From assembly GCA_016124895.1 (NCBI GenBank), contig WGMU01000100.1:1-64000 (forward strand): DNA of 64,000 nt. The letters run 5' to 3'. The notes below the pieces were generated by a model. It searched no databases and was not told the origin of the DNA. It worked only from the letters and a program-made list of their open reading frames with translations. The DNA is from a bacterium (GTDB taxonomy: Bacteria; Planctomycetota; Planctomycetia; Planctomycetales; Planctomycetaceae). The translations under genes were made by a program, and so were the position numbers. Position 1 is the stretch's first letter; every line of letters begins with the position of its first letter. Of the stretch, positions 123-59,532 are shown piece by piece.

Positions 123-1076
123 TCAATCCGCGACCACGCAGATCGCGGTTACCCGATCGTGAACGATGACCGGCCAGGCGAGTCCCCACGACAGCACACC
201 CGTCGACAGCGCACCTCCCAGGACCGGATCGTCGGACTCGACGTCCGTCACGACGGCTGGCTTTCTGGTATCGAGGACGCGGCCGATGAGTCCCTCTCCC
301 GGAACGCTGCGAAGCTGACTGCTGCGACCGGCGAGGTCCGCCAGGCTCGGAGCAACGACTTCGGACAGCTCGAACACGCCCTCAGTCTCGGACGGGACCC
401 AGATCTGCAGAGCCCGCGCGATCGGCGACGCGTTCGACGAGAGCATCACAAAGACCGCGTTGAGATGATCGGCGCCACTGACAACAGGAACTGCCAGGCC
501 GGAATCGAGTCCGTCGGCGACGGCTCCTGATGCCCGTAGAAAGTGACTTGATTCGCCCAGACGATCGATGAGTTGCGGCGTCAGCGTCTGCCACACTTCG
601 CCAGGCAGGCCAGCTCCGTATGGAAACCTCAGGTACTGGCTCAGCCGTCGGAAGCGATCAAGGTCAGAGTAGTAGCCGGTGCCCAGTTCCAGTTCGTGCC
701 GAGTTGTATTCGGGAGCCAGGACTCAAAAGCCCCGCGTGCCAGCTCGTCGGCATCGAACAGAAAAATCATAACTGCGGTCAGTTCGTCGCCGTCAAAGAC
801 CGGCAGGCCAAAGCCAGCGCCCAGATTTGATTCCGTTGCCGCACCGCTGCGCACAAAATCAGCCGAACTGAGATCGTCGAACAGAACCGGCACGCGCGCT
901 TCACTGACCCAGCCCGGCAGTCCGGTGCCAGAGGCCAGACGCAACGACTGCGTGGCCACGCCAAACGCGTCAACGTCGGCATACATCGCCGAGTCAACGA
1001 CGAGCGTACCATCAGCGGACGGCGTCCAGACTTCGACAACTTTCAACAGGCTTGAGGCGATAATTGTGTCTCCCAT
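123..1076 (-). CDS. Tandem GAF-domain protein (two GAF-like halves, no recognisable output domain); last gene of the nrt-like operon. The track ORF's Arg-rich N-terminal extension is probably not translated, so the start was moved to the internal ATG 1074-1076.
   Basis: ORF 123..1271 minus. From MGDTIIASSLLKVVEVW onward it has GAF-like alpha/beta character and is collinear with, and 56 bp downstream of, the ABC ATPase gene. ATG start codon confirmed on the minus strand at 1074-1076. Confidence 0.5.
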   Translation of the reverse strand: MGDTIIASSLLKVVEVWTPSADGTLVVDSAMYADVDAFGVATQSLRLASGTGLPGWVSEARVPVLFDDLSSADFVRSGAATESNLGAGFGLPVFDGDELTAVMIFLFDADELARGAFESWLPNTTRHELELGTGYYSDLDRFRRLSQYLRFPYGAGLPGEVWQTLTPQLIDRLGESSHFLRASGAVADGLDSGLAVPVVSGADHLNAVFVMLSSNASPIARALQIWVPSETEGVFELSEVVAPSLADLAGRSSQLRSVPGEGLIGRVLDTRKPAVVTDVESDDPVLGGALSTGVLSWGLAWPVIVHDRVTAICVVAD

Positions 1077-1132: not shown

Positions 1133-2083
1133 TCAGTGTGCAGCGTCCGCAGTGACCAGTTCTTCTTCGACCTCGGCTGCTGCGTCGGTTGTGACTGGTT
1201 CGTGAGCAGTCACGGCCACCTCTGGTTCCGCGGGCCGGCGATCCTGACCTTCGAGGAAGCTCAGCAGGCAACCTCGCAGGTCGTAATAGTCGGGATGTTC
1301 GAGGACAGCGTGCCGCTCGCGGGGCCGTTCAAACGGAAGCTGCAGCACCTGCCCGACGCGTGCTCCTGGCCCGTTGGTCATCATGCAGACGCGATCCGAC
1401 ATGTAGATCGCTTCATCGACGTCGTGCGTGATGACCATCGTGGTGATCTTCTCACGGTTCAGGATGTCGAGGATGACGTCCTGCAGTTCCATCCGCGTCA
1501 GCGAATCCAGCCGACCGAACGGCTCGTCCAGCAGCAGCATCCGCGGCTTGAGCGCAATCGCCCGGGCGATGCCGACGCGCTGCTGCATCCCGCCGGAGAG
1601 TTCCTTCGGGTAACGGTGCATGGCGTCCGCGAGACCGACGACGCTGAGGTAGTACTCGCAGAGTTGTTTACGATCCTGTTTCGATGCTTGCGGATAAACG
1701 CGGTCGACGCCGATCTTCACGTTCTGAAACGCGGTCATCCACGGCAGCAGACACGGAGCCTGAAACACGACCGCTCGATCCGGACCAGGTCCGACGATCT
1801 CACGGCCTCCGACCACAATTCCGCCCGAAGAAATATCGTTGAGCCCGGCGACCATCGTCAGGACAGTCGACTTGCCGCAACCCGAGTGTCCGATGACGCT
1901 GACGACCTCACCCTTACTGACAATCAGGTTGAAGCCCTTCACGACAGCAATGTCTTCGCCATACGGATTCGGGTACGCCTTCGTCACTTCGTAAAACTCG
2001 ACAAACCGACGCTCTGCGAGTGCCATCCCATCAGTCTTGGCCTCGGCTGCCGGTGTCAGGTTTTCAGTGATCGGTTGAATCAT
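1133..2083 (-). CDS. ABC transporter ATP-binding protein, nitrate/sulfonate/bicarbonate (NrtD/CmpD/TauB-like) type
   Basis: Walker [13 protein letters not shown] signature LSGGMQQR, Walker [13 protein letters not shown]-loop ITHD. 316 aa. Position 4 in an A-B-C-D gene order. Confidence 0.85.
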
Positions 2084-2320: not shown

Positions 2321-3205
2321 TCACGACGCCATTCGGCCTGACGGTGTTGTCAGGTCAATCGGCTGGATATCCGGAAGCTCGATTGCATCGGCGACACGCA
2401 GTTCCTTCGCCTCGCGGTTGATGTCGAGCATGTATTCCGTGACCTCGTTCCGCAGATGCTTGAAGTCGGGGTTGAAGTTCAGCGTCGTCCGATCTCGAGG
2501 TCGTTCGAGCGTCACTTCGAAGCTCTGTCCGAGCGTCGCATTCGGTCCCGGCGTCAGTGGTACGATGCGATCAGCCATGAGCACGGCTTCGTCAACGTCG
2601 TTCGTGATCATCACGACCGTGCGGCGATCCTCTTCCCAGATGCGAGTGATTTCGTCCTGCAACTGTGATCGGGTCAGAGCATCCAGCGCGCTCAGCGGTT
2701 CATCGAGCAGCAGCACTTCCGGCTGCATTGACAGCGTCCGGGCCAGCGACAGCCGCTGCCGCATTCCGCCCGAGAGTTCATGTGGCTTTTTCCACTCGGC
2801 ACCGGTCAGGTTGACCATGTCGATGTACCGCTGGATGTACTGCTTCCGCTCGGCGGTTTTCATCTCGGGGAAGACCTGCTTCACCGCCAGCTCGATATTG
2901 CCGTACACACTGAGCCACGGCAGCAGCGAGTAATTCTGAAACATGATGCCGCGGTCCGGCCCCGGCTCGGTCTGTACCTTGCCGTGAATGCGGACCTCGC
3001 CGGAATCCGGCAGCAGCAGCCCGGCCAGCAGTGCGATCAGCGTGCTCTTGCCACTGCCTGAAAAGCCAATGACAGCTACAAATTCATTTTCTTCAACTTC
3101 CAGACAGACGTCTGTCAGAACTTCCGTGCGATCGCCGTCCGGACCAAATCCGAGGGACACATTGTCGAGTTCAATGAAGGCCACAGTGGGCTCCTTCCTG
3201 TTCAA
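2321..3205 (-). CDS. ABC transporter ATP-binding protein (NrtC/CmpC-like ATPase, no C-terminal NrtA-like extension)
   Basis: Walker [10 protein letters not shown], signature LSGGMRQR, Walker [13 protein letters not shown]-loop ITND. 294 aa. Confidence 0.85.
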
Positions 3206-3224: not shown

Positions 3225-4829
3225 CTAAATCGCGGCTGCGGCGTCGTCGAAGCTCACCAATCGCTGGAACACAATCATGATGCGATCGAGCACCAGGCCG
3301 ATCAGGCCGACGACAAACACAACGACCATCATCTTGGCGAACGAATCGGATGCTCCGTTGTTGAACTGATCCCAGACGAACTTGCCGATCCCTTCTGAAG
3401 AACTCAGCAGTTCGGCTGCGATGAGCACCATCCAGCCAACGCCGAGCGAAATCCGCAGGCCGGCGAAGATCAGAGGCAGCGACGACGGGATGACGATCTT
3501 GAACAGCCGGTCTTTGAAGCCAAGCCGCAGGACTCGCGCGACGTTCAGGTGATCCTTGTCGATCGACGCAACGCCCAGTGCGGTGTTCGTCATTGTGGCC
3601 CACAGAGAGCACAGCGCGACGGTAATCGCCGACGCAATGAACGCCGGATTGATCTTCATCCAGCCAAGCAGCGGCAGGTTTGCCAGAAAATCGATCAGCC
3701 AGTGCTTGTCCGGGTCGGGAATAAAGCCGCCGACGATGATCAGCGCGATCGGCAGCCAGACGATCGGCGAGACCGGCTTAAACAGTGCGATGAACGGCGT
3801 CATGGCCGCCATGAATGTCTTGCTCAGTCCGCACAGAACGCCGATCGGAATGGCGATTGCCGAGCCGATCAGAAAACCGGCAAACACGCACGCCAGGCTG
3901 CGGTAGATCTGCATTGGCAGCGTCCAGGGCTTCGCGTACGTCGATTCCGACGTCTTCTGAATCCGCGCTTCCTGCCGCACGATCCGCTGTGCCAGCATGA
4001 ATGCGGCGTCGCCTTCCGCCGACAGAAACGTGACCTGATCAGCGCGGAGTTGAGCCATCTGCTCGTCGAGCTTGAGCGTCCGGTTGCCGTGTCCGAGCTG
4101 CTCGGACAGCTTGCCGAGATACTGTCGTTCTTCCGCAATCCGCGTCTGAGCCTTCAGTGCGTTGACCAGTTGCGGGAACTTCTCGGCACGAATGGCCGTT
4201 TCTTCGGCTTTGAGTTCCTTCAATTGCTCGCGTTCGGCTTCCGTCTTTGCCGCATGATCGCGCACCCGCTGCAGGTAAGCTTCCCTGGCAGCTCGATCGG
4301 CCGACGCCAGCAGCCCAGCATCCCGCTTCAGGGCCGCCTCACGCTCGGTCTGCGCGGCAGAGAATTCGGCGTCGAGCTTCTCGTACTGCGTGAGAATCGG
4401 ACCGACGAGTTCCTCAACACTGGTCGTACGAGCGGCGTTAGCTTCTTTGACGTGCTGGTTGGCAAGTGTCTCCAGTGGTTCGAGCTGACTCAGCCGTTTC
4501 TCGACGATGGCCAGCTTCTGTTCGCGGGTCTTTCCACTGAGCCCGTAAGCGTCTTCCTTGTCAGCCTCACGATCATGGAACCGCCAGATACTGCTCGCCG
4601 CATCCCAGACGACCAGTGGCGTTGGGACCTCCCCGGACTTCGTCTTGTGTCGCGGAGCAATCGCACCCCACAGGCCGACGAAAACCGCAAAGGCGATCAG
4701 CGGGACGACGATGAACCGTCCGATTTCCTGAAGCTGCTTCTTCGGCTCCTCACCGTAGCACAGCCGGACGACCGGAGTGAGAAAGGTCAGACCGGCAACA
4801 TCGATCGCTTTAATGAGTTTGTATTTCAT
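3225..4829 (-). CDS. ABC permease of the NrtB/CmpB/TauC family carrying a ~250-residue charged coiled-coil insertion between an N-terminal TM helix and the canonical permease core
   Basis: 534 aa. The C-terminal ~260 aa (from [35 protein letters not shown]) is a typical binding-protein-dependent permease core with the EAA-like region [12 protein letters not shown]. Residues ~70-310 are E/K/R/A/Q-rich heptad-like sequence ([43 protein letters not shown]...). Separated from the next gene by only 19 bp. Confidence 0.8.
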
Positions 4830-5047: not shown

Positions 5048-6553
<1,506 letters not shown>

Positions 6554-6900: not shown

Positions 6901-6984
6901 CGGAGGTCGGGAGTCTTTTTCAGTCAGACCACCTTCGCAATGGTTTCCGCTCGCTCCGAAAAAGACTCCCGACCCTTGCCGGCC
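6901..6984. repeat. MITE-like element, copy A: 15-bp perfect terminal inverted repeats GTCGGGAGTCTTTTT ... AAAAAGACTCCCGAC (6906-6920 / 6959-6973)
   Basis: Direct reading of the sequence. ~85% identical over ~84 bp to a second copy at 9763-9846. Lies in the intergenic region between the globin stop and the nrtA-like upstream region. Confidence 0.7.
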
Positions 6985-7026
6985 TTCGGTCTTCCCTCTT
7001 GCTGGTCTGTAAAAGAGGAACGCGAA

Positions 7027-7449
7027 TCAGGCCGCAGCGAGTTCTGCGGCTGCTTCTCTCATCGTCGTCGATAGAATCGTGTAGACAGTCACCCAGGCAT
7101 CTTTGACTTCAGGAGTAAACGCGTCTCCGAGCCCCTGCTCCAGCGTCCACAGCAAGGCTGCGCCGACGGTCTGGTACTGCGAGTCCTCGACGTTGTAGGC
7201 GACGTGTCGCTGTCCGAGGGCTTTGACCGCGGGCACAATTTCGCCCACATCGGTCAGGCCGTTGACGGCGAAGGCAAGCGTCTGCATCAGCTTCTTTTTC
7301 TGCTCGGCCATTTCGTCGGGAAAGAGCGCCCGCAGCGACGGATCGAGTTCAAACAGGCGGCCATAAAACAGATCGGCAGCCTGATCGGCGATGGGAGCAA
7401 CAGCGGCCCACGATGCCTGAACGAGAGAGACTTGCGTCGGAGTGACCAT
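7027..7449 (-). CDS. Single-domain bacterial haemoglobin (globin domain resembling the Vitreoscilla Hb / flavohaemoglobin N-terminal domain)
   Basis: 140 aa. LVQASWAAVAPIADQAADLFYGRLFELDPSLRALF matches the globin A-B-C helix signature (..W..V......FY.RLFE.DP.L..LF). The proximal His context QRHVAYNV is consistent with the F-helix. Confidence 0.75.
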   Translation of the reverse strand: MVTPTQVSLVQASWAAVAPIADQAADLFYGRLFELDPSLRALFPDEMAEQKKKLMQTLAFAVNGLTDVGEIVPAVKALGQRHVAYNVEDSQYQTVGAALLWTLEQGLGDAFTPEVKDAWVTVYTILSTTMREAAAELAAA

Positions 7450-7554: not shown

Positions 7555-8118
7555 TTACGAGTCCGACGAGCGGATCAGTCGCAGGTCGCACTCACGAATG
7601 ACGTACTTCCATTCCTCCGTCCGCCGCAGTTCACCAACCAACTGGTCAAAGGCCGCGGCATCGGAGGGTGCAAATTCAAACCATGTCAGAAAATCGAACG
7701 CTCCGCCGAGATCCCGCGAATGGTGCAGCCGTCGCGCCACCGCCGGCAGATAGTTGAGTCCCGTCGCAATGTGTCGCGATTGGGTTTCCAGAATGGCGCG
7801 GCGTTCGTCCTGCGTAAGGCCCCACCACTCCGGCGATTTCGACAGAGCAATGAAGGCGGCACACGACGCTTCGGCTCGGCCGAGCGGCGGCTGCACAGCC
7901 ATCAGAGCTGCCTTTTCACTGCGTGTCACGTATCGCTCGTTGCTGACGACTCCTCTGAGGCACCACGTTACAGCGGCCAGCTCCGGCACAAACGGTTGAG
8001 CAGAGGACACGATGTCCAGACGGTCGACCGCCGGCAGTCCGTCGCCTGCAACGTCCGTCTTTGTCGTGACCTTCCACGGTCCGGCCGAGCCACCCACAAA
8101 CGTGAAGAATCGATCCAT
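7555..8118 (-). CDS. Short (lineage II, Nitrobacter NwCld-like) chlorite dismutase family haem protein
   Basis: 187 aa. Near-collinear motif agreement with short Clds: LRGVVSNERYVTRSEKAAL, WWGLTQDERRAILE, the proximal-His context SRHIATGLNYLPAVARRLHHSRDLGGAFDFLTWFEFAP, and TEEWKYVIRECDLRL. The Arg of AVARRLHH aligns with the distal catalytic Arg. No signal peptide. Confidence 0.75.
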   Translation of the reverse strand: MDRFFTFVGGSAGPWKVTTKTDVAGDGLPAVDRLDIVSSAQPFVPELAAVTWCLRGVVSNERYVTRSEKAALMAVQPPLGRAEASCAAFIALSKSPEWWGLTQDERRAILETQSRHIATGLNYLPAVARRLHHSRDLGGAFDFLTWFEFAPSDAAAFDQLVGELRRTEEWKYVIRECDLRLIRSSDS

Positions 8119-8219: not shown

Positions 8220-8846
8220 TCAATCGAGCGGAATGCGGACGACGACGCCTCCCATGACGTCACCTGCCTTGAATTCGGGATAGCTCACTTCGCGGTTGGC
8301 GTGACCGTTATGGCAGGACCAGCAGGCTTCGGCGACGGCCTTGTCGGCATAGACCGCGGTGAAGTAATTCGCTCCGGCGATCTCTTCCGTCTTGTAGAAG
8401 TTCTCATCCGGATGCTCGGCGATATATTCGAGGCCTTCGATCTCGACGCCTTCCGCTTTGTTCTGTGGATTCAATGGCCACTTCGATTTGAGGGCGTACG
8501 TGAAACCGGCTTCGGGGTTGTCGTTGACCAGTTCGGCTCCCATGCGAAACATCTGAGCGGGCAACGGAATCGTGTGCTCTTCGTCCTGCCAGTATTCACT
8601 GGGTTTGACCGGGGCTTCCTGCTTCTTAAGACGTGTCACGACCTGTTTCGCGTAGACCGTTCGGTCGGCCATCATCACCGCGTGAACGGCGTCAGCGAAT
8701 TTCTGCGGCGTGATGCCGGTTGGCGGAGTCGTCTGAGCAACGGCGTCAGACGAGCTGCCGCCACCGCATCCGGTGGCTCCAGCCAGCATCACCGCGCTGC
8801 CACTCAGCAGAACGGCAGACAGGAATGTGCGCGTGTGTGGTTTCAT
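8220..8846 (-). CDS. Lipoprotein monohaem c-type cytochrome with the haem motif near the C-terminus, possibly cytochrome c'/P460-like
   Basis: Lipobox LAGATGC. A single CXXCH (CWSCH) lies at ~residue 175 of 208. The C-terminal placement of the motif resembles the cytochrome c' / c'-beta / P460 families; that assignment is inference only. Confidence 0.55.
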   Translation of the reverse strand: MKPHTRTFLSAVLLSGSAVMLAGATGCGGGSSSDAVAQTTPPTGITPQKFADAVHAVMMADRTVYAKQVVTRLKKQEAPVKPSEYWQDEEHTIPLPAQMFRMGAELVNDNPEAGFTYALKSKWPLNPQNKAEGVEIEGLEYIAEHPDENFYKTEEIAGANYFTAVYADKAVAEACWSCHNGHANREVSYPEFKAGDVMGGVVVRIPLD

Positions 8847-8922: not shown

Positions 8923-10428
8923 TCAGTGCGGCTGAGCCGGTTTCGCGGCCGGGCCGGGCAGACCTTTGTGGGACCGCCCCTTGCGGGACTTCGACTCAAA
9001 CCAGCTCTGTGCCATGTCCAGACTCTCAACGTGAACGCTCGGCGGCGTTGAATAACAGTTGGCTGTGAGCTGTGGATCGGCGAGCGCATCCAGTGAGAAC
9101 TGCAGCCCGTGGCAGTTGAGGCAAACGCTGCGAACCATCTTCTCCTTCGGTCGCAGATTGGCGTTCTGGTTGTGCTCGACCGAGACGCGTCCGTCCTCGG
9201 TCCGAGGCAGATGACACGACGCGCAGGAAACGCCGCTGCCTGCGGGAGCTTTGCCCGAGACCTCAGCCAGCCATAGTCGGTAATGCGACGACCCCGCGTA
9301 TTCGCGGCTGTGCTGATCGTCGTGGCACTTCAGACACGCAGCGACTGCGGCCTCTGCCGTGTCATAACGATGAGCCGGATGGCAGGCGTTACAGGTCAGT
9401 GATTCGTGCGCGGCGCTGGACTTCATCGGCAGGCGAGCGTTCGACGGCTGCATGCGCGAGAGCCCGGCCGCGAGCCTCATGCCATGACGGCTCGCCAGAA
9501 AACCGTCAACTTCCGACGCGTGACACTGGCGACAGGTTTCATGACCGACGGCGTCAGACCACCTGGAAGCACCGCCGTCCCTCTTCGGCTGATGACAGCC
9601 CGAGCAGTTGACACCCGCGCGAGCGTGACTCGATTCAACCCAGGCCGTCAGAAGCGAATGGTCGCTCGCGTGCGAAGACAGCGCGTCGTGATCGTCGATC
9701 GTGAGTTGTATTGTGGATCGAGTGACGGTTTCAGTGGGACGATTTGAAGTCGTTGGGTCCGAGGAGGTCGGGAGTCTTTTGCGGTCAGACCGCGTTCCCA
9801 ATGGCTGGCGCTCACTCCGAAAAGGACTCCCGCCCCCTTGCCGCCCGACCGTCTGAGAACGACGCAGCCTCAGCAGAGGACTCTCCAGAATGTCCGGCTC
9901 GCCAGCGTGCTTCAGCAGGAAGTTCTCATACAGCGCTGTGTTGTCGTGGTAATTGTGACAGCCGGCGGTCGCGCACGAGTCGTACTGAAACGCCGCATGG
10001 CTCGGACGGTCCTCACCGATCGACTGGTGACAGTGAAAGCAGTAATCGGTCGGCAGCGTCAGTCCCATCGCGTGAGTGCGCTCGGGAACGTGCTCGCTGT
10101 GACAGGCGATGCAGCTTCGCGCGTCGATGTGCTGCAGCAGCTTTGCTTTCGTCGGATCACGGAACTTGCTTTCCGGATGGGTATCGCGAGCCTGCCTGAG
10201 TTCCGCAGCGTGGCAGTCGCGGCAGGATTCCTCGCGCACACTGCCGCCAGGTTCGTGACACGCCGCGCACTTCATTTCGATCTGATAATGCCCGTGCGTG
10301 GTCTCGCCCGGCAGAAACACCGTGGACAGCTCCGACGTCGAGTCACTCGTCGGCACAGCGCAGGCCAGCAGCCCGCCGAGCCCGACAGTCAGCAGCAACC
10401 AGATTGCCCACAGCGTGACGTTCGACAT
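8923..10428 (-). CDS. Membrane-anchored multihaem cytochrome c (~10 CXXCH motifs) carrying an in-frame 84-bp MITE-like insertion between an N-terminal NapC/NrfH-like block of 4-5 haems and a C-terminal 6-haem block
   Basis: N-terminal TM helix (WAIWLLLTVGLGGLLACAV). CXXCH motifs: CAACH, CRDCH, CIACH, CFHCH (plus an odd CATAGCH), then CSGCH, CRQCH, CNACH, CLKCH, CASCH, CLNCH. Residues ~194-222 (VGRQGGGSPFRSERQPLGTRSDRKRLPTS) are encoded by the repeat at 9763-9846. Reading frame confirmed by hand translation around 9889-9900. Confidence 0.65.
   Translation of the reverse strand: MSNVTLWAIWLLLTVGLGGLLACAVPTSDSTSELSTVFLPGETTHGHYQIEMKCAACHEPGGSVREESCRDCHAAELRQARDTHPESKFRDPTKAKLLQHIDARSCIACHSEHVPERTHAMGLTLPTDYCFHCHQSIGEDRPSHAAFQYDSCATAGCHNYHDNTALYENFLLKHAGEPDILESPLLRLRRSQTVGRQGGGSPFRSERQPLGTRSDRKRLPTSSDPTTSNRPTETVTRSTIQLTIDDHDALSSHASDHSLLTAWVESSHARAGVNCSGCHQPKRDGGASRWSDAVGHETCRQCHASEVDGFLASRHGMRLAAGLSRMQPSNARLPMKSSAAHESLTCNACHPAHRYDTAEAAVAACLKCHDDQHSREYAGSSHYRLWLAEVSGKAPAGSGVSCASCHLPRTEDGRVSVEHNQNANLRPKEKMVRSVCLNCHGLQFSLDALADPQLTANCYSTPPSVHVESLDMAQSWFESKSRKGRSHKGLPGPAAKPAQPH
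9763..9846. repeat. MITE-like element, copy B, lying inside the multihaem cytochrome reading frame: TIRs GTCGGGAGTCTTTT ... AAAAGGACTCCCG
   Basis: ~85% identity to 6901-6984, including the internal CAATGG core and flanking GGAGGTC / CCCTTGCCG. TIR positions 9768-9781 and 9820-9832 (one mismatch). Confidence 0.7.
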
Positions 10429-10585: not shown

Positions 10586-10792
10586 TCAGATTGAAGGACT
10601 GATGATCGAGCAACTGCCTTCCACGGCTCGCAGCGTCAGAAACGCGAGGCGGGTCAGCGTCGGGCGGTCGTAACCTTCCAGACGTTGCCGGACATCCGGT
10701 CGCAGAAAGCCGGGCTCCGCGGAGAGGATGAAGTGAGCGAGTTCACGGTCGGTCATCTCGGCAATGCTGAAGGCAGAGGTGCTGGGGGCCAT
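10586..10792 (-). CDS. Small hypothetical ORF (68 aa) between the cytochrome gene and the flavoprotein gene; coding status uncertain
   Basis: Collinear with its neighbours and located in a 390-bp gap. No recognisable motif. Confidence 0.2.
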   Translation of the reverse strand: MAPSTSAFSIAEMTDRELAHFILSAEPGFLRPDVRQRLEGYDRPTLTRLAFLTLRAVEGSCSIISPSI

Positions 10793-10819: not shown

Positions 10820-12871
10820 CTACAGGTAAAAGGCTGCGAAGATGTGAAACGCGACGAGGATCGGAAACGGCCAGAAACAGACGATGTGCAGCAGCGTCAG
10901 ACGTGGCCGCCAGAGGCGAATCTGTCGCTGCAGATCACCAGAAGCCCGGCCTTCCATGGCCGTGACGGCGCCAGTCAATGCACCGGCAACGCTGAGTCCC
11001 AGAAACGTCGTCATCAGCCAGAAGTTAAGATGACTGCCCAGACGCATTCCCGTATGAGCGATCAGCCCGGCGACCGTCAGCGTGCCCAGAATGCCGTGCC
11101 CGGCCCGCCACCAGCCGAAGTTCAGAAACTGCAACCGACTCCAGCGCTTCCGCAGTGAGAGCAGCAGCGCGGCGACAGACAGACCGATCAGCGAAAAGCC
11201 GGTGACCTGTTTCCAGAAGGCGTCGCGCCAGACGGCCTCAAACTGGTACCACGCCGATTGAACAGTGCTCGACCAGGCGATCGGCCCGAACAGCAGAATC
11301 ACCCCGACGAGCACCGCCGCAGACAACGACGCGGCCAGCAGCCAGCGCGAGCCCGGTGTTTCAACAACGGGTTCCGACGGAGCGCCGGCCAGCGCGGCCA
11401 GTTGCGGCCGACATGACCCGCAGACGGTCGACGCTCCGGTGGCTGCCGCAAGAGCATCGACCGACCGGCAGCCGCGTTCGCAGGCTGCGGTCAGCTCACC
11501 GCGAGAAACGCCAACGCAACTGCAGACGATCGCACCTGCCGGCCACGCCGCGACGTCCGCGTTTTCCGGCGGTGGCCATAACGAGCCCTCCGACTCGAAA
11601 CGCCGCCGCTGTTTGCCCCGGATACGCCGCTGTTTCGTGATTGCTTCCTGCACGCGCGGCAGTTCAGGAAACGGTCCGACGCCGACGGCACCGACGAGTT
11701 TCTGCCCGCGGAGGATGAGTTTGCGGTATGCCTCGTCATTCCGAATCGTCAGCGCCTGCGCGTCGCTGACGTCGAGATAGTCGCCGCACAGCGAGACATC
11801 GACACCCAGCAGTTTGAGCCGCGTCGAGACGTCACTGCCGGTAAACGCGGCGTGTTCCGCGTTCAGCGTCGCCGCGACGACGTCAGCCATGTGGTAACCC
11901 GGCGCCGCGAGACCGTAGATCGTGTCGCGATGCAGAGCGCACTCACCGATCGCGTAGATATTCGGGTCTGATGTTCGCAACTGGTCATCGACCACGATGC
12001 CGCCGCGCGGTCCGACGTCGAGACCAGCCTCTCGCGCCAGTTCGTCACGCGGTCGAATCCCCGCTGCAATGACGATCAGATCGACGTCGAGCGTTCCGTC
12101 TGGAAACTCAATGATCCGCCGCTCTCCGTCAGCGCGAATCGCCTGCGTCTTTTTCTGCAGATGGACGCGTACGCCGAGCGATTCGATCAGCTCGCGCAGC
12201 AGCGCCGCTCCGTCGTTGTCGAGTTGCCGCGGCATCAGCACGGACGCCATTTCAACAACGTGCGTTTCCAGTCCGAGGTCCAGCAGCGCGCGGGCAGCTT
12301 CGAGGCCCAGTAGTCCGCCGCCGATCACTGCGGCCGACTTCGCCGACTGACCGAACTGTTTGATCTGCTCGACATCATCAACGGTCCGGTACAGAAACAC
12401 GCCCGGCAGATCGCGCCCTTCAATCGGCGGCACAAACGGACTCGACCCCGTGGCCAGAACCAGCGTGTCGTACGGAACACAATCCAGCGATCGCGAGCGA
12501 ATCGTCTTCGCTTCGCGATCGATGGCCAGCACCGGATCGCCGGTGCGCAGTTCGATGCCGCGGTCCTCGTACCAGTCCCGGTCAGCAAATGTCAGCGATG
12601 CCGCAGTTTCCTCATCGAAGAACGAAGTCAACCGCACGCGGTCATATGCCGGTCGCGCTTCCTCACCAAACGCAATCAATCGATGCGAACGCTGCAGATG
12701 CCGGTCGCAGAGTTTCTCCAGCAGCCGAAAACCCACCGGCCCGTTGCCGACAACAACGATACCTGCCAGCGATAAAGAGGCATTCGAGGAGTTCGCTGTC
12801 GATGCACCGACCGCAGCCGATATCTGGGATTCGGCGACACTTTCCTGCGGGGAACTCAGTGCCACGACCAT
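10820..12871 (-). CDS. Fusion of a NirB/NasB-N-terminal-like FAD/NAD(P)-binding oxidoreductase and a BFD-like [2Fe-2S] domain to a C-terminal 5-6 TM His-containing membrane domain; it lacks a sirohaem nitrite-reductase domain. Start set at the internal ATG 12869-12871.
   Basis: Rossmann motif VVGNGPVGFRLLE, second dinucleotide site AAVIGGGLLGLEAA, YAIGEC, then a BFD-like Cys cluster (CSCVGVSRGELTAACERGC...CGSCRP). Hydrophobic helices with His follow (LIAHTGMRLGSH, LLHIVCFWPFPILVAFHIFAAFYL). Confidence 0.65.
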   Translation of the reverse strand: MVVALSSPQESVAESQISAAVGASTANSSNASLSLAGIVVVGNGPVGFRLLEKLCDRHLQRSHRLIAFGEEARPAYDRVRLTSFFDEETAASLTFADRDWYEDRGIELRTGDPVLAIDREAKTIRSRSLDCVPYDTLVLATGSSPFVPPIEGRDLPGVFLYRTVDDVEQIKQFGQSAKSAAVIGGGLLGLEAARALLDLGLETHVVEMASVLMPRQLDNDGAALLRELIESLGVRVHLQKKTQAIRADGERRIIEFPDGTLDVDLIVIAAGIRPRDELAREAGLDVGPRGGIVVDDQLRTSDPNIYAIGECALHRDTIYGLAAPGYHMADVVAATLNAEHAAFTGSDVSTRLKLLGVDVSLCGDYLDVSDAQALTIRNDEAYRKLILRGQKLVGAVGVGPFPELPRVQEAITKQRRIRGKQRRRFESEGSLWPPPENADVAAWPAGAIVCSCVGVSRGELTAACERGCRSVDALAAATGASTVCGSCRPQLAALAGAPSEPVVETPGSRWLLAASLSAAVLVGVILLFGPIAWSSTVQSAWYQFEAVWRDAFWKQVTGFSLIGLSVAALLLSLRKRWSRLQFLNFGWWRAGHGILGTLTVAGLIAHTGMRLGSHLNFWLMTTFLGLSVAGALTGAVTAMEGRASGDLQRQIRLWRPRLTLLHIVCFWPFPILVAFHIFAAFYL

Positions 12872-13197
12872 GAGCCTGAGGACTCTCACACTGCAAGTGA
12901 CAAATCGAGACTTGCTGCGTTCCGCCATCGAAAGCCGTTCTCGACCTCATCAGACGGACGCTGCGTCACTCTCAATTCGCAATGGCTATGCCGCAGGGAA
13001 AATCACATGCCCCTGAATCTCGCTTTCGTGGATCTCCACACACGAGCGTCGCATCACTTCTGCGGGCATCCACGCAATCTGGCCGCAGTTGGAGCCGCCG
13101 CGACAATCGCAAGCTGCCCGGCGAGCAGGCGACTGAGTTCAGAATCCGGGCACAACTGCGGCGTCAGAGTTACTCAAGCTCAGTCCCAGAGTCGGCG

Positions 13198-19515: not shown

Positions 19516-19610
19516 GGGCGACTGGGTAGCGAAGAGACTCTGGGCGTCAGCGTCTGGAGAAGAGGATCATCAGAAAGCGGCGAAGCCGCGACAGAACGTA
19601 GCTGCGGGCG

Positions 19611-19630
19611 TCAGCCCGCAGAACCGGAAA
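19611..19630. repeat. REP-like palindrome CTGCGGGC-GTCA-GCCCGCAG flanking the RAYT gene (left copy)
   Basis: 8-bp perfect stem. An inverted partner lies at 20178-20197 with a reverse-complement loop (TGAC) and ~28 bp of extended similarity. Confidence 0.7.
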
Positions 19631-19664: not shown

Positions 19665-20129
19665 TCAGCCGTGATGCTCACCTTCAAACAGATACTCGAG
19701 TCGAAACTCAACGTTATGCCGCTTCAGAAACTCAACGTACTCCTCTTGACAACTTTTCGTCCGGTGGTGCTCTGCCTGGTCGCGAATGTATCGCTGCACG
19801 GCATCGATCTGCGAGTAACTGACGGTGAATGCTGAGTAGCCCTTCTGCCACTCGAAGGGAAACCGAGTTCCTGGCAGTTCACTGATCCATTTCGATGAGT
19901 TGGCTTTCAGATCGCGGATGACGTCCGCGACCGCCAGCGTCGGCAAGAGTTTCGTCAGGATATGGACGTGATCGCGGGTCCCGCCGATTTCGATTGATTG
20001 ACCCTTTCTGCCGCGAATCGTTCCGCCGAGGTATTCGTAAAGACGAGCCTGCAAGTCGGCGCTGATGGCTGGGCGTCTGTATTTCGTTGAAAAGACGATG
20101 TGGTAATTCAGTTGTGTGAAACTTCCCAT
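19665..20129 (-). mobile_element. REP-associated tyrosine transposase (RAYT; IS200/IS605 TnpA-like, Y1 HUH transposase). Start set at the internal ATG 20127-20129.
   Basis: LNYHIVFSTKYRRP...GTRDHVHIL...KGYSAFTVS gives the HUH (HVH) motif and conserved Tyr typical of IS200-like and RAYT proteins. Flanked by inverted REP palindromes. Confidence 0.8.
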
Positions 20130-20177
20130 GAGGTCCTCTGTCGCCGCTTCGCGGCTCAAGTCATGGTTAGTAAAGAA

Positions 20178-20197
20178 CTGCGGGCTGACGCCCGCAG
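20178..20197. repeat. REP-like palindrome CTGCGGGC-TGAC-GCCCGCAG (right copy, inverted relative to 19611-19630)
   Basis: Direct reading of the sequence. Confidence 0.7.
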
Positions 20198-20242
20198 CTA
20201 AGTTCTGCCGCGGCTTCGCCGCTGGCAACGAGCCGCTGAACT

Positions 20243-21358
20243 TCAATCGGAGTTCACAAAACAGATCAGCGTATTCTCCATCCAGTCGAACGCCTCGTTC
20301 AGCGTCAGGCCAGAGTCGGTCAGCAGGCCGTGGCAGTAGCGGGTGACGAACTTCGGCTGCCAGTCTTCACGCAGGTAGTCGACGCGGCTCTTGCCGGCGA
20401 CGCGGGCCAGCATGCACGCTCCAAGATGGCGCACGCAGCGACGTTCGTAATCGGACGTCTCGCTGCCGGTCGGTTCGAACCAGTGAGGGGCTGGCTTTCT
20501 TGCGAGATAAGAGAAGTAGAGACGATTAAACTCGCGGGTCATCGCAATGACCTGCATGGCCAGACAAGCTCCACGTTGCTCGTTTGATTTGCTCGCGTGG
20601 CAAACAACCTTCAGCAGCAGGTGGCTGAGGAAGAAGCCGACGCCGAACGCCGGGGCGCCGAAGTGGCCGGTTTCAAAGTCGACCAGTACCGGGCCGTGCG
20701 ACGCGAGCAGGATGTTTTTCGGGCTGAAGTCTGCGAGAACAATGCTGTCGCTGCGGGTCAGCGAGGATTCGATGATCGCTTCGAGCGCCGGGCGGCAGTG
20801 CTCGTCATGCTCGGCGACGTAGCGGTAGAACGGGTCAAGTCGCAGTTCGTCAAAGACGGTACGGTCGCCGAGTTGTTCCGCCAGTACCTCGTTACCAGTC
20901 GAACCACGGTGAATCGCCGCGAGGGAGCCCGCAAGGGTTTTCGCGACGTTCTGATCGATCTCCCCCGCAAGCAGTTCCGCTTTCCAGACGCGATGACTCG
21001 CCTCGATCGCCTCCATCGCGAACAGATAGTTCTCGCGATCCTCAAACAGAACGACCGGTACGACGCCGTCGGGCAGCAGACGTTTCAAGGCGTGCAGCAT
21101 GTCGACTTCGCGCCAGATGCGTTCCAACTGGCTGAACCAGTCGATCTGTGTGCGCAGCTTCTCGCGCGACTGCTTGATCACGAAGCTCCGCACCGCGGGC
21201 TGAACATCGACGCGGATGACGATGTTGGAAACGCCCCACGCCAGTTCGGTCGCCGTTGCCGAATTCAGATCGGCAGCTGTCAGGCCGACCTGCGGCAGAA
21301 ACTCGCGGCCCGGTCCGCGGAGATAGTCCAGCGTCGTTGAGGCGTCGATCTCGATCAT
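20243..21358 (-). CDS. Phosphotransferase-family protein (APH / choline-kinase / MtnK-like small-molecule kinase fold)
   Basis: LADFSPKNILL (Brenner-like HxDxxxxN variant) and LVDFETGHFG (DFE/DxG) motifs. 371 aa. Confidence 0.5.
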   Translation of the reverse strand: MIEIDASTTLDYLRGPGREFLPQVGLTAADLNSATATELAWGVSNIVIRVDVQPAVRSFVIKQSREKLRTQIDWFSQLERIWREVDMLHALKRLLPDGVVPVVLFEDRENYLFAMEAIEASHRVWKAELLAGEIDQNVAKTLAGSLAAIHRGSTGNEVLAEQLGDRTVFDELRLDPFYRYVAEHDEHCRPALEAIIESSLTRSDSIVLADFSPKNILLASHGPVLVDFETGHFGAPAFGVGFFLSHLLLKVVCHASKSNEQRGACLAMQVIAMTREFNRLYFSYLARKPAPHWFEPTGSETSDYERRCVRHLGACMLARVAGKSRVDYLREDWQPKFVTRYCHGLLTDSGLTLNEAFDWMENTLICFVNSD

Positions 21359-46777: not shown

Positions 46778-49285
46778 TCAATGATTAAACAGAAACTCGC
46801 GCGTGCTCATCACGCTCCAGAAAACGTCTTCGAGCACGATTCGTTTCTGCTCCGCATCTGAGTCGGGAATGGCATTTAACACGGCGACGGTTTCGTTCCG
46901 TTCCTTCTCGGTCGGTTTTCGAGCCAGGCACAACCGGAAAACCTCATCGACGACTTCCTCGTCAGACTTTTCCGATGCCAGCAGCGCGGTCAGGCGGTTG
47001 TCTTTGGCGCTCAGCTTACTGTTGATCGTGTCACCGTTCGCGATATGCAGGACCTGAACCATGCTCGGTTCTTCCGAGCGTTCGCATTCGCAAGTGATCT
47101 CGCGATCGTTGCGGCCGAACGTTTTCAGGAAGTAGGACTCGACAGCGGAATCGTAAAGCTGAATCGCTCGTGTTCCTTTCGGATAGAACTTCGTTTCCTG
47201 ACGATCGCCGCCGGGAAACGCGACGTGCGTAAATTCAGTCGGTACCTGCGTGACCTGCGAGACGGCATCGAGCAGCACTTCCGCCATCAGTCGCTTCGGA
47301 TAGTAGCGAGAGAAGTAACGGTCTTCTTCGCGGTTCTCATCGAGCGCCACGCTGCTGCGCTGATAAGTTCGCGACTGCAGAATCGTCCGCATGAGCGACT
47401 TCAGATTGAAGTCCGCGTCGACCAGATGCTGAGCCGCGGCTGCGAGCAGGGCTTCGTTGCTGGCCGGGTTCGAGCGGCGCAGATCGTCGACTTCGTTCAC
47501 GATCCCGACGCCGAAGAAGTTCGCCCACAGACGATTGGTGATTGACCGCGTGAAATACGGATTGGCCGGACTGGTCAGCCATGCAGCGACGTGTTCCCGG
47601 CGGTCCTCTCTTGCGTCAAACGCAACGGGATCACCATCGAGCGGTGTCGGTGGCTGCGGTCGGCCTGTGCGTGGCTGAACGAGTTCACCGGCCGGAACGA
47701 CATACAGCGTTCGGACGCCATCGCCACTGCGCACGTCGCCGCCCCAGCCTTTCGCCCGTATGCGCGAAAACAGATTCGCGAAGGCGTAGTATTGATTGTT
47801 GGTCCATTTCTCGAGCGGATGGTTGTGGCACTTCGCGCAGGCGATCGACAGGCCCATGAACGCCTGGCTGACGTTCTCGGCCATGTTTTCCGGATCCTGA
47901 TGCAGTGCGAAAAAGTTCGTGGCTCCGTTTTCAATGGAGCTGCCGGTCGACGTGACGATCTTCCGTACGAATTCATCCCACGGCGTATTCTCAGCGACCT
48001 CGTTACGGATCCATTTGTAGTAAGCCTCGACCGCCTGAGGTCGCAGGCGGTTGCCGGAAATCGTCAGGACGTCGCACCACTTGTAAGTCCAGTAGTCGAC
48101 GAACTCGGGCCGCGCCAGCAACAAGTCGATCAGCGCATCGCGTTTGTCTGGTGAGGCGTCTTCCTCAAACGCCGTAACTTCCTCGATGGTCGGCAGCGTG
48201 CCGATCGTGTCGAGAAAAGCGCGACGAATAAACTCGTTGTCGGTGCAGAGCGGCGAGGGCTTCAGATGCAGATCCTGCAGCTTGCCGAGAACCAGATCGT
48301 CGATGAAGTTGCGCCGCGGTTCGCTTGTAAAAACGTCTGCCGGGATGTCATACGGAAACGGACTGGTCAGCCGCGCGATCACGATTCGGCTGGCAAACCA
48401 CGCGGTGACGGCTCCTCCGCCGTGCCCGATGACGGAAGCCATTCCATCGTCACTGATCTTCGCGACAGTCTCGTTCGTCGAGGTGAACTTCGCCCACTCG
48501 GTGACGTCTTCCGTATGCCCGTCCGAGTAGTGAGCGAGGACCAGAAACTGCTGTTCCTGGCCGACCGTCAGCCGAACATCTTCCGGCAGTACCTCAATAC
48601 GCGTAACGACTGGGTCCGAGTCAGCCGGCGGCTTGGCGCCGGCACTGATCCATTCGGCCAGAATCTGATAGCTCGGCGAGTCCGTGTCGAAACGCAGCCC
48701 GCCTTTGTGCGGCAGAGCGCCAGTCGGCTTGGCAAGCAGCAGACTGCGGCCCGGATCGGCGAGTTCAACGCGTCGACCTCGCGCATCCTTCACCATCGAA
48801 AAGTGATCGGCTGCCGGGTCGTAACCGCGGAGCGAAAGTCGAAAGCCACCCTTCCCGGCCAGCGCCCCGTGACACGCGCCCGAGTTGCACGCCTGCCTGG
48901 CCAGCACCGCCTGGACATGATTACGAAAGCTCCATTCGTGTGGCACATCAAACTTTTCGACCGTGACGTTGACGCTCGCCGAGCCGTCGTTCGTCTTCGC
49001 GGTAATTGTCGCGCTGCCATTCGCGACGGGCACAACGACGCCATCAACGACTTTCGCGATCAGCGGCGCATCAGATGACCATTCGATGCCATCGAGAACC
49101 TGCCCGATCAGACGTGAGTCGACCTGCCGCTCCAGCAGCAGCCGCTGCGAGGCACGCGGTCCTGTCAACTGAACGGACTCCGGCAGCAGTCGCAGCGATT
49201 CGTCTGCGATGCAGCTTTCCGTTCGCCACAATGAAACGAGACCTGCCAGGGCAATCAGAGCAACGACGAGTTTCACAGCGTTCAA
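46778..49285 (-). CDS. Planctomycete PSCyt1 - Big_2 - DUF1549 (PSCyt2) - DUF1553 (PSD1) secreted protein
   Basis: CNSGACHG (PSCyt1), Ig-like region, DNEFIRRAFLDTIGTLPT (DUF1549), LSIACAKCHNHPLEKW (DUF1553). 835 aa. Confidence 0.75.
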   Translation of the reverse strand: MNAVKLVVALIALAGLVSLWRTESCIADESLRLLPESVQLTGPRASQRLLLERQVDSRLIGQVLDGIEWSSDAPLIAKVVDGVVVPVANGSATITAKTNDGSASVNVTVEKFDVPHEWSFRNHVQAVLARQACNSGACHGALAGKGGFRLSLRGYDPAADHFSMVKDARGRRVELADPGRSLLLAKPTGALPHKGGLRFDTDSPSYQILAEWISAGAKPPADSDPVVTRIEVLPEDVRLTVGQEQQFLVLAHYSDGHTEDVTEWAKFTSTNETVAKISDDGMASVIGHGGGAVTAWFASRIVIARLTSPFPYDIPADVFTSEPRRNFIDDLVLGKLQDLHLKPSPLCTDNEFIRRAFLDTIGTLPTIEEVTAFEEDASPDKRDALIDLLLARPEFVDYWTYKWCDVLTISGNRLRPQAVEAYYKWIRNEVAENTPWDEFVRKIVTSTGSSIENGATNFFALHQDPENMAENVSQAFMGLSIACAKCHNHPLEKWTNNQYYAFANLFSRIRAKGWGGDVRSGDGVRTLYVVPAGELVQPRTGRPQPPTPLDGDPVAFDAREDRREHVAAWLTSPANPYFTRSITNRLWANFFGVGIVNEVDDLRRSNPASNEALLAAAAQHLVDADFNLKSLMRTILQSRTYQRSSVALDENREEDRYFSRYYPKRLMAEVLLDAVSQVTQVPTEFTHVAFPGGDRQETKFYPKGTRAIQLYDSAVESYFLKTFGRNDREITCECERSEEPSMVQVLHIANGDTINSKLSAKDNRLTALLASEKSDEEVVDEVFRLCLARKPTEKERNETVAVLNAIPDSDAEQKRIVLEDVFWSVMSTREFLFNH

Positions 49286-55142: not shown

Positions 55143-55177
55143 GGCTGATCTCACTAAGAGATGGTGATTTCTTTTCT

Positions 55178-55290
55178 CGTTCCCATGCTCCGCGTGGGAA
55201 CGCTGGTTCGGACGCCCTGCGTCCATTCGTTGAATCGAACCACCGCAGAGCGGTGAGAGCTGGCATTCCAACGCGGAGCGTTGGAACGAG
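55178..55290. repeat. Structured inverted-repeat element in the DUF1553-DUF1501 intergenic spacer: hairpins CGTTCCCA-tgctccgcg-TGGGAACG, nested TGGTTCG..GGACGC-cct-GCGTCC..CGAACCA, and CATTCCAACG-cggag-CGTTGGAACG
   Basis: Direct reading. The first and last hairpins are inverted copies of each other; their stem differences are compensatory (stem preserved). Confidence 0.5.
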
Positions 55291-55309
55291 TAGTGGATTC
55301 TGAATAAGA

Positions 55310-59422: not shown

Positions 59423-59532
59423 AGACAACTCGTACCGACGCTCCGCGTCCACTCAAATCGATGCCGAGCGTCGGCACGGGATAAACGGCCGGTGGGAACC
59501 GGCCCAACTTTGAAACTCGCAAGGACCAAACC

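Follow-up and report, generated by a model that had tools for sequence, protein, structure and literature searches.

A short lineage-2a chlorite dismutase as an accessory gene of a nitrate-type uptake and redox cluster in Planctomycetota

We found that a small open reading frame (ORF) in a planctomycete genome encodes a lineage-2a (clade 2, short, dimeric-type) chlorite dismutase (Cld), and that its gene, cld, belongs as an accessory member to a gene cluster conserved in Planctomycetota. Within the window, i.e., the whole 64,000-nucleotide stretch of DNA that was analysed, this cluster lies on the minus strand in the order NirB-like reductase, multihaem cytochrome c, Tll0287-like protein, Cld, globin, NrtA-like binding protein, NrtB, NrtC, NrtD, and GAF-domain protein (Table 1). 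Taking the protein and its surroundings together, we consider it probable that a functional lineage-2a Cld serves here as an accessory of a nitrate-type uptake/redox cluster, where it clears chlorite from the nitrate/nitrite route. What is new is the composition of the cluster and the place of Cld as an optional part of it; the linkage of cld to transporter genes is itself already published.

The family assignment of the protein is carried by motifs, database scores, and individual residues. In the ORF listing of the window, cld starts with ATG and encodes a product that contains all motifs quoted in an earlier note on this DNA, namely SRHIATGLNYLPAVARRLHHSRD (residues 114-136), FDFLTWFEFAP (residues 141-151), and TEEWKYV (residues 167-173). 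The protein scored 38.1 bits against Pfam PF06778, above the gathering score of 25, and an identical protein is found in NCBI under the label "chlorite dismutase". We obtained 4,939 homologues at E<=1e-10, with relatives in at least 525 stretches of a species-representative genome collection. Upon searching the PDB with phmmer, the best match was PaCld (9gtj; 57% identity, 8e-67), and NwCld (3qpi; 1e-56) and CCld (5k8z; 1.3e-52) also matched strongly, while clade-1 Clds reached only ~1e-8 and the Cld-like/HemQ-type protein TA0507 only 2e-3.

Functional Cld was judged by the definition used by Barnum & Coates 2022 (PMC9751292) and Hofbauer et al.; the former define Cld by the NwCld residues R127, K92, H114, and E167. 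The window protein carries the corresponding proximal haem ligand His116 (CAC, window positions 7771-7773; NwCld H114) and distal catalytic Arg129 (CGA, 7732-7734; NwCld R127, CCld R127, PaCld R128), together with Lys94 (AAA, 7837-7839; NwCld K92) and Glu169 (GAA, 7612-7614; NwCld E167) of the proximal H-bond network, and R129, K94, H116, and E169 were unchanged in 87 of the 87 relatives compared. Residues typical of clade 2 are present as well, namely Gln76, Arg106, and Trp98/Trp99, in addition to Arg107: Gln76 is the partner that H-bonds the distal Arg (CCld Q74, PaCld Q75) and is Gln in 84/87 relatives, and Arg106 is the clade-2 Arg (PaCld R105). The length of 187 aa falls in the range of lineage 2a/clade 2 (~180-190 aa, with a single ferredoxin-like domain).

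The predicted fold agrees with this assignment. An AF2 monomer model (pLDDT 87.6) superimposed on PaCld, CCld, and NwCld with TM scores of 0.91, 0.88, and 0.85, respectively, compared to 0.67-0.70 for clade 1 and ~0.6, at 16% identity, for ChdC. A non-catalytic Cld-like identity of the protein (HemQ/ChdC-type or DyP-type), for which shared superfamily membership and nothing more can be cited, is therefore highly improbable. HemQ/ChdC was rejected because the protein is a single domain of 187 aa and not a two-domain protein of ~240 aa, retains the distal Arg, and scores 1e-52 to 1e-67 against functional clade-2 Clds, far from its score against TA0507; DyP was rejected because no DyP chain occurs among the PDB matches at E<=1 and no DyP Pfam match was obtained. 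Two observations had been named in advance by the earlier note as speaking against a genuine Cld, a replaced distal Arg and placement among coproheme decarboxylases, and neither was made when we looked for them. Its description of the protein as a short lineage-II Cld whose catalytic signature is intact, and not as a HemQ/DyP-like relative, hence stands on motifs, PDB scores, residues, and fold alike.

The closest characterised enzyme, PaCld (9GTJ, PMC12525007), resembles the window Cld over its full length (56-57% identity), and both are short, dimeric-type, and free of a signal peptide. The residues reported for haem binding and catalysis in PaCld (R61/Y62/V63, Q75, I89, K93, W97/W98, R105/R106, H115, L123, R128, and E170) are all identical in the window Cld, whereas the beta6-beta7 loop of PaCld has two extra residues that the window Cld lacks, and the two differ in host phylum and gene neighbourhood. 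NwCld (3QPI) and CCld (5K8Z) share the clade 2 architecture at 53% and 48% identity, with the same distal Arg, proximal His, Lys, and Glu, but they come from a nitrite oxidiser and from a cyanobacterium, respectively, neither of which has the planctomycete redox module. In a neighbour-joining tree, PaCld sits with nearly zero branch length among the Clds of Stutzerimonas, Pseudidiomarina, and Atopomonas, with that of Marinobacter (L035) nearby, and we suggest that PaCld belongs to a horizontally spread type. Judging from 48-57% identity to three enzymes characterised by others, the window protein would convert chlorite into chloride and O2, and from its sequence we conclude that the cld product is almost certainly a functional, short cytoplasmic haem enzyme that detoxifies chlorite, with a homodimer as its probable predicted state.

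A cytoplasmic location follows from the structure of the gene and its product. As the ORF begins at the first start codon past the upstream stop, an N-terminal extension, and with it a signal peptide, is impossible; in the alignment, the protein starts level with residues 3-4 of the crystallised proteins, and a search for a hydrophobic segment in the protein found none. The gene is flanked by intergenic gaps of 101 and 105 bp, and its GC and GC3 agree with those of the neighbouring genes, on which grounds a recent horizontal transfer of cld was rejected.

Table 1. Coordinates of cld and the surrounding cluster features in the window.
Feature	Position	Strand	Description
NirB-like FAD/NAD(P)H + BFD [2Fe-2S] reductase	10820..12928	minus	702 aa as ORF listed; no sirohaem (NIR_SIR) domain
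Multihaem cytochrome c lipoprotein	8923..10428	minus	501 aa; 10 CXXCH, 1 CX4CH, no CXXCK
Tll0287-like (DUF3365 / sCache_heme) haem-c lipoprotein	8220..8846	minus	208 aa, stand-alone; Pfam PF11845 1.1e-18
cld, chlorite dismutase lineage 2a (clade 2)	7555..8118	minus	187 aa, cytoplasmic
Single-domain globin	7027..7449	minus	140 aa, 105 bp downstream of Cld; Pfam Globin 3.8e-15
Palindromic element, ~76 bp	6902..6977		Just downstream of globin stop; 19-bp-stem hairpin
NrtA-type substrate-binding lipoprotein (NMT1_2)	5048..6553	minus	Pfam 9.6e-96, lipobox
NrtB-type ABC permease	3225..4829	minus	534 aa; TIGR01183 ntrB 1.4e-42, Pfam BPD_transp_1
NrtC/D-type ABC ATPase	2321..3205	minus	TIGR01184 ntrCD 293.9 bits (cut-off 291.8)
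Second transporter ABC ATPase	1133..2083	minus	Pfam ABC_tran
GAF-domain protein	123..1076	minus	317 aa in the gene call of L093; mechanical ORF runs to 1271

On the importer side of the cluster, the NrtA-type gene has a mechanical ORF that reaches 6667, while the lipoprotein signal begins at 6553. Its product matched the NrtC C-terminal domain (2e-64) and NrtA (6e-54) in the PDB more strongly than CmpA (2e-38), and by this similarity its substrate would be nitrate-type rather than bicarbonate-type. The permease carries an N-terminal extension of ~300 aa and has the same length in the related loci L002 and L005, and orthologues of the second ATPase occur at 73-77% identity in L002, L005, and L088. 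In relatives, genes for a PAS histidine kinase and for a response regulator of the GerE type come after the GAF gene. That the GAF protein senses nitrate/O2 in the manner of NreABC was unsupported, as no PDB sequence match, NreA included, was obtained. A search for sequence beyond the left end yielded only a Logan contig of 3 kb.

On the other side, the globin finds its best PDB matches in the Methylacidiphilum 'Hell's Gate' globins (3s1i/3ubc/3wfw, 5e-25), and its best NCBIfam match, far below the model cut-off, is the globin domain of the NO-inducible flavohaemoprotein (3.3e-20). The Tll0287-like protein, whose family is the subject of bioRxiv 10.64898/2026.02.01.703092, combines a single CWSCH motif with a lipobox at its N-terminus, and gave no meaningful match to the PDB by sequence. 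The multihaem cytochrome c contains, in frame in its linker, a palindromic repeat element (9763-9838) that is the second copy of the element downstream of the globin gene; an NrfA- or ONR-like nitrite reductase identity of this cytochrome was not supported, given local matches of ~50 residues with E ~1e-4 and the absence of the CXXCK catalytic motif. The NirB-like protein covers only positions 1-463 of the 794 in TIGR02374 and ends in a fused 5-helix membrane domain with two conserved H-x13-H pairs (His611/625 and His681/695), from which we read it as a putative two-haem-b domain; its fold was modelled by AF2 at a pLDDT of 68, and Foldseek returned no PDB match below E 0.3.

The region 6905-7035 folds at -58 kcal/mol (z = -4.8 vs shuffles), and a putative transcription unit running from the NirB-like gene to the globin gene probably ends at the hairpin that closely follows the globin stop. 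A consensus promoter/terminator scan found sites no more commonly than in shuffled sequence, and Rfam gave no riboswitch or leader RNA near the cluster.

The setting of cld is not that of a (per)chlorate reducer. No Pcr, Clr, Nar, or Nas enzyme is encoded in the 64-kb window, and no molybdopterin oxidoreductase was detected by Pfam scans, which covered ~45 ORFs with a length of at least 180 aa that we regarded as genuine genes, along with a few shorter neighbouring ones. A dissimilatory (per)chlorate-reduction island was thus rejected within the 64 kb by the absence of a Pcr/Clr molybdoenzyme and by a Cld that lacks a signal peptide, as the earlier note had likewise read the context. An assimilatory cluster (nasA, nirBD, nrtABCD) was also rejected for the window, in which NasA is absent and the NirB-like protein has a membrane domain in place of the catalytic NIR_SIR domain of true NirB. 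Clusters of the latter kind do carry cld elsewhere: in Flavobacterium gawalongense (L083; nasA-nrtABCD-cld-MFS-HK-nirB), cld lies directly downstream of nrtABCD-type genes, and in both this locus and a MAG labelled Bordetella (L063) it falls within a nitrate-assimilation cluster with nrtABCD and nirB, accompanied by nasA in L083. Clusters of the L083 type possess a true NasA and a true NirB with sirohaem domain, whereas the window has neither.

The linkage of cld to nitrate-type transporter genes is not unusual. In 12/80 species-representative loci, including 8 of the 11 from Planctomycetota, Nrt-like genes are found at a distance of up to 10 kb from cld, and the arrangement corresponds to 'neighbourhood group 11' of Barnum & Coates 2022 (PMC9751292), where the gene of a cytoplasmic lineage-2 Cld stands beside those for an ABC transporter of the nitrate/sulfonate/bicarbonate type (binding protein, permease, and ATPase). 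The window fits this group with an NMT1_2 binding protein, an ntrB permease, and an ntrCD ATPase at ~1-6.5 kb from cld. The earlier claim that the position of cld is unusual thus has to be withdrawn, and the placement of Cld between globin and importer has to be corrected: Cld has the Tll0287-like protein and the globin as its neighbours, and the globin separates it from the importer. In the available main text of the group 11 account, the words 'globin' and 'cytochrome c' do not occur, nor does a mention of a NirB-like membrane reductase or a Tll0287-like protein.

Beyond the transporter, the gene string of the window recurs in L002-L005, with Cld at 69-70% identity, and in another order in a Phycisphaeraceae MAG (L068), with Cld at 58% identity; the latter Cld falls outside the clade of the window Cld in a neighbour-joining tree that is star-like and lacks support values, so that its independent acquisition in L068 is suggested only. 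The core of the module is formed by the NirB-like membrane reductase, the 11-haem cytochrome c, the Tll0287-like lipoprotein, the globin, and NrtABCD, and in relatives an outer-membrane porin accompanies the importer. The globin is present in L005, L068, L087, L088, L090, L091, and L092, Cld occurs without globin in L002-L004, and the module occurs without Cld in L087, L088, L091, and L092. Since the core module is also found without Cld, Cld is accessory and dispensable for the activity of the module.

One may ask whether this neighbourhood carries any meaning at all, as cld could be a mobile, often transferred gene that landed in the cluster by chance. The history of Cld includes extensive horizontal transfer, an IS200-like transposase lies ~11.5 kb from cld, and the place of cld inside the module varies, being before the globin, after it, or in its stead. 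We nevertheless regard a chance landing as unlikely: two classes of Planctomycetota share the association, all partner proteins having diverged to 47-79% identity, the 12/80 loci with linked Nrt genes compare with ~1% roughly guessed for a random 20-kb stretch, and the composition of cld is like that of its neighbours. [quoted passage not shown]

In the reading that we favour, detoxification of chlorite from the nitrate/nitrite route, the cluster is seen as made up of three parts: (i) a high-affinity nitrate/nitrite-type ABC importer (NrtA-like, NrtB, and two ATPases), (ii) a putative chain that would use NAD(P)H to export electrons across the membrane, leading from the NirB-like protein via the 11-haem cytochrome c to the Tll0287-like protein, and (iii) the cytoplasmic globin with the GAF protein, joined in relatives by the PAS kinase and response regulator. 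Nitrate/nitrite transporters may also carry the analogues chlorate and chlorite, and chlorate transport has been proposed for the Cld-ABC transporter linkage by Barnum & Coates 2022 (PMC9751292). Chlorite could then either be imported directly into the cytoplasm or be formed from imported chlorate by a nitrate reductase whose gene lies elsewhere. It would bind the distal face of the haem b ligated by His116, the haem being tuned by a His116-Glu169-Lys94 network, and a mobile distal Arg129, parked on Gln76 when 'out', would hold the transient hypochlorite/oxoiron intermediate until the O-O bond is formed and chloride and O2 are released. Cld would thereby destroy chlorite before it damages the haem and Fe-S proteins encoded at the same locus.

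We also weighed whether Cld and the adjacent globin handle NO, nitrite, or peroxynitrite rather than chlorite. Such a role would fit the direct adjacency of cld to a globin whose best family match is NO-linked, its location inside a nitrate/nitrite-type uptake cluster, the existence of a structure of CCld in complex with nitrite (7ou5), and the binding of NO by signalling-linked relatives of the Tll0287-like protein; stand-alone Tll0287-like proteins, however, did not bind NO strongly. Cld is described in PMC9751292 as highly specific for chlorite, with no known other substrate except for a weak H2O2 activity, all chlorite-specific residues are conserved in the window protein, and its sequence gives no hint of a changed function. 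Furthermore, the module often keeps the globin without Cld, which indicates that the job of the globin is independent of Cld. Altogether, we hold an N-oxide function to be quite unlikely.

Slightly less credence still goes to an oxidative origin of chlorite, in which HOCl is oxidised either by purely chemical means or by a haem protein acting like a dioxygenase, for which the neighbouring globin is an example, with Cld finishing the detoxification and the importer being irrelevant. Taking NO dioxygenase, a globin, as their model, Barnum & Coates (PMC9751292) proposed that an oxidase converting HOCl to chlorite awaits discovery; in addition, the window lacks a chlorate-reducing enzyme, and the relatives come from marine, saline, or sunlit settings, among them one TARA contig and another whose name refers to a marine metagenome. 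This chemistry is, however, purely hypothetical, and it would leave the recurrent Cld-Nrt linkage across phyla unexplained. Globin without Cld in at least four loci and Cld without globin in L002-L004 moreover indicate that the two are not an obligate pair.

A further, speculative reading with a small share of our confidence treats the cluster as an undescribed, molybdenum-independent, nitrate-/nitrite-like oxyanion system, found mainly in Planctomycetota, whose own activity makes or admits chlorite in the presence of chlorine oxyanions. Such production or admission by the system itself would explain why Cld was repeatedly added at different positions of the module.

As one of thousands of lineage-2a Clds, and one already correctly annotated, the enzyme itself adds little. 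The context is of modest value: the cld genes of Planctomycetota are linked as a rule to a system for nitrate-type uptake, and one lineage carries cld as an optional addition to a conserved, uncharacterised haem/redox module. In PMC4973843 and PMC9751292, as in the earlier note, the physiological role of short Clds continues to be called unresolved, and the linkage points to a defined set of partner genes. If the molybdenum-independent reading holds true, the module variants with and without Cld would provide a direct comparative handle on the role of short Clds. Overall, the findings support the idea that, in organisms other than perchlorate reducers, short Clds protect against chlorine oxyanions coming in by nitrate/nitrite pathways.

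We found the short chlorite dismutase homologue (Cld), which the earlier note had rightly recognised as a lineage-II member, to be an ordinary, already annotated lineage-2a chlorite dismutase. In the ORF listing of the window its gene (cld) opens with ATG, the first possible start codon past an upstream in-frame stop, so that a longer N-terminus, and hence a signal peptide, cannot be encoded; all the peptides quoted in the earlier note lie within the 187-aa product. The protein matches PF06778 in Pfam (38 bits against a cut-off of 25) and carries 4/4 of the residues (NwCld R127, K92, H114 and E167) that, together with PF06778, define Cld in the account of Barnum & Coates 2022 (PMC9751292), from which the definition of lineage 2a also comes. 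These four residues were invariant in a 19-sequence alignment and in 87/87 compiled relatives. The haem-holding and haem-tuning residues of PaCld are catalogued in the paper on that enzyme (PMC12525007), and all of them are identical in the window protein (R62/Y63/V64, Q76, I90, K94, W98/W99, R106/R107, H116, L124, R129 and E169). Upon comparing the sequence with solved structures, we obtained a steep ranking of E-values, from the clade-2 Clds of P. aeruginosa (PaCld, 9gtj; 8e-67), Nitrobacter (NwCld, 3qpi; 1e-56) and Cyanothece (CCld, 5k8z; 1.3e-52) to the pentameric/hexameric Clds of clade 1 (4e-9 and weaker) and the Cld-like TA0507 (2e-3), with no DyP match among the solved structures. An AF2 model (pLDDT 87.6, pTM 0.86) superposed with TM values of 0.91 on PaCld, 0.88 on CCld and 0.85 on NwCld, versus 0.67-0.70 for clade-1 Clds and ~0.6 for coproheme decarboxylases. 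Residues, ranking and fold revealed neither a replaced distal Arg nor a coproheme decarboxylase placement, and the intact catalytic signature proposed earlier stands; the enzyme's identity as a chlorite dismutase is close to certain. A non-catalytic Cld-like protein was tested and rejected on the same defining residues, sequence ranking and fold, and its probability is negligible. NCBI already holds an identical protein, named "chlorite dismutase [bacterium]", and the family is very large: a threshold of E<=1e-10 gives 4,939 homologues, and species-representative genomes contain no fewer than 525 relatives.

In a neighbour-joining tree, the Clds of Atopomonas, Pseudidiomarina and two Stutzerimonas species lay beside the crystallised 'P. 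aeruginosa' PaCld with a branch length of ~0, and a Marinobacter Cld lay near this group. The occurrence of PaCld-like Clds across genera fits the horizontal Cld transfer reported in Barnum & Coates.

Features of the window, with codons of Cld taken straight from the sequence
Feature	Position	Strand	Remark
NirB-like FAD/NAD(P)H + BFD [2Fe-2S] protein	10820..12928	-	NirB model positions 1-463 of 794 only
68-aa ORF	10586-10792	-	gene call present in Logan contig
Multihaem cytochrome c lipoprotein	8923..10428	-	10 CXXCH + 1 CX4CH, no CXXCK
Palindromic element, copy	9763-9838		in frame within cytochrome c gene
Stand-alone Tll0287-like haem-c lipoprotein	8220..8846	-	Pfam PF11845
Cld	7555..8118	-	187 aa
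Cld Lys94	7837-7839		AAA
Cld His116	7771-7773		CAC
Cld Arg129	7732-7734		CGA
Cld Glu169	7612-7614		GAA
Single-domain globin	7027..7449	-	closest to Methylacidiphilum globins, 5e-25
Palindromic element, copy	6902-6977		right after globin stop codon
NrtA-type binding lipoprotein	5048..6553	-	nitrate-type score > bicarbonate-type
NrtB-type permease	3225..4829	-	534 aa, ~2x usual length
Two ABC ATPases	2321..3205 and 1133..2083	-	one exceeds ntrCD cut-off
GAF protein	123..1076	-	
Acido-Lenti-1 RNA motif (Rfam)	19576-19621	-	47.3 bits, gathering score 37
IS200-like Y1 transposase ORF	19665-20246	-	
371-aa ORF	20243-21358		no Pfam match
PSCyt2/PSD1 (DUF1549/DUF1553) genes	46778-49285, 53841-57328, 57686-60825		DUF1501 gene paired with two

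The neighbours of cld all lie on the minus strand, in the transcription order NirB-like protein, cytochrome c, Tll0287-like protein, Cld, globin, hairpin, NrtA-type protein, NrtB-type permease, two ATPases and GAF protein, and cld matches them in GC and GC3. Cld had been placed between the globin and the importer; its actual flanks are the Tll0287-like protein and the globin. Recent work reclassifies the Tll0287/DUF3365 family as haem-c Cache domains, suggesting redox roles for stand-alone members and NO sensing for signalling-fused ones (bioRxiv 10.64898/2026.02.01.703092). In the NirB-like protein, both here and in L002, L005, L068 and L087-L092 (compared loci from other genomes or contigs), a C-terminal five-helix membrane domain replaces the sirohaem domain, which was not found. 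Its two conserved H-x13-H pairs suggest, as a sequence pattern, a putative two-haem-b transmembrane electron exporter. Only six database proteins match this domain, and its poor AF2 model (pLDDT 68) gave no fold match. Ahead of its permease domain, the permease bears one N-terminal transmembrane helix plus ~250 aa of charged, coiled-coil-like extension rich in Glu, Ala and Lys; the 534-aa length of the permease is conserved in L002 and L005. The 68-aa ORF between the NirB-like and cytochrome c genes lacks a counterpart in L002, L005, L068 and L087-L092 and is probably spurious or lineage-specific.

The window has two copies of a palindromic element of ~76 bp (GGTCGGGAGTCTTTTTC ... GAAAAAGACTCCCGACC), with 82% identity where they align. 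The copy behind the globin forms a strong hairpin (folding energy -58 kcal/mol and z = -4.8 for region 6905-7035), and the other makes up most of an extra ~30-40 residues in the cytochrome's inter-domain linker, a stretch absent from the L002, L005 and L088 orthologues. The element resembles a small REP or MITE whose presence in a coding linker is tolerated. Elsewhere, the Acido-Lenti-1 motif sits directly 3' of the Y1 transposase ORF, upstream of which lies the 371-aa ORF, and may be part of the insertion-sequence end and not a free-standing sRNA. The remaining genes, typical of Planctomycetota (PSCyt2/PSD1/DUF1501, DUF1581/1583, BatA, MoxR/DUF58), support the window's assignment to that phylum.

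The earlier note called the linkage of Cld to a nitrate importer unusual, which it is not, because Barnum & Coates 2022 had already published the pattern: the Cld-linked families listed there include nitrate/sulfonate/bicarbonate ABC transporter subunits, a "neighbourhood group 11" is described with chlorate transport proposed, cld is reported adjoining NasA and NarG, and Planctomycetes are among the phyla likeliest to have Cld (PMC9751292). Neither 'globin' nor 'cytochrome c' appears in the main text of that paper. In our sample, Nrt-like genes lay within 10 kb of cld in 12/80 species-representative loci, eight of them from Planctomycetota, which contributed 11 loci in total; cld stands between nrtABCD and true nasA/nirB in a Flavobacterium (L083) and between nrtABC and true nirB in a MAG labelled Bordetella (L063). 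That the neighbourhood is meaningless, a product of gene mobility, is unlikely, since the linkage recurs across lineages.

The closest Clds (69-70% identity; L002-L005) share a string of porin, NirB-like protein, cytochrome c, Tll0287-like protein, Cld, globin (present in L005, missing from L002-L004), binding protein, 534-aa permease, two ATPases, GAF protein, PAS kinase and GerE response regulator. A Phycisphaeraceae MAG (L068), from a second Planctomycetota class, has all components in a changed order, Tll0287-like protein, globin, Cld. Querying metagenome contigs in reverse with the NirB-like membrane domain yielded six loci (L087-L092), two of which (L089, L090) are short contigs with part of the module only. 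The other four (L087, L088 (TARA), L091, L092) hold the NirB-like protein, an 11-haem cytochrome c, Tll0287-like protein, globin, NrtABCD and porin without Cld; in L091, the transporter and redox genes are closely packed into one operon, which has the porin gene last and a divergent LysR regulator. Modules without Cld, together with its varying position, indicate a core of transporter, redox chain and globin to which Cld is accessory.

Our analysis establishes the sequence, the fold, the conservation of residues and the conserved linkage, and known Cld enzymology supplies the probable mechanism. Haem b would be ligated by His116 and tuned by Glu169 and Lys94, with Arg129 positioning chlorite; an O-O bond would then form, and chloride and O2 would leave. 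Cld may thereby clear cytoplasmic chlorite entering by the nitrate/nitrite uptake route, or arising from imported chlorate through a nitrate reductase encoded elsewhere, a role to which we give an even chance; Pfam scans of ORFs of at least 180 aa across the 64-kb window found no molybdopterin oxidoreductase. Work on the Klebsiella enzyme KpCld (Celis et al. 2015) reportedly lends support to such an antioxidant role. Two other readings involve the globin, and both are weakened because Cld and the globin do not always occur together: N-oxide chemistry performed by Cld together with the globin seems very improbable, and so does the oxidative formation of chlorite by a route in which the globin is a hypothetical HOCl oxidiser. 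Whatever the role of Cld, the module is conserved and uncharacterised in its own right, and the modest novelty lies in this planctomycete module carrying Cld as an optional insert.
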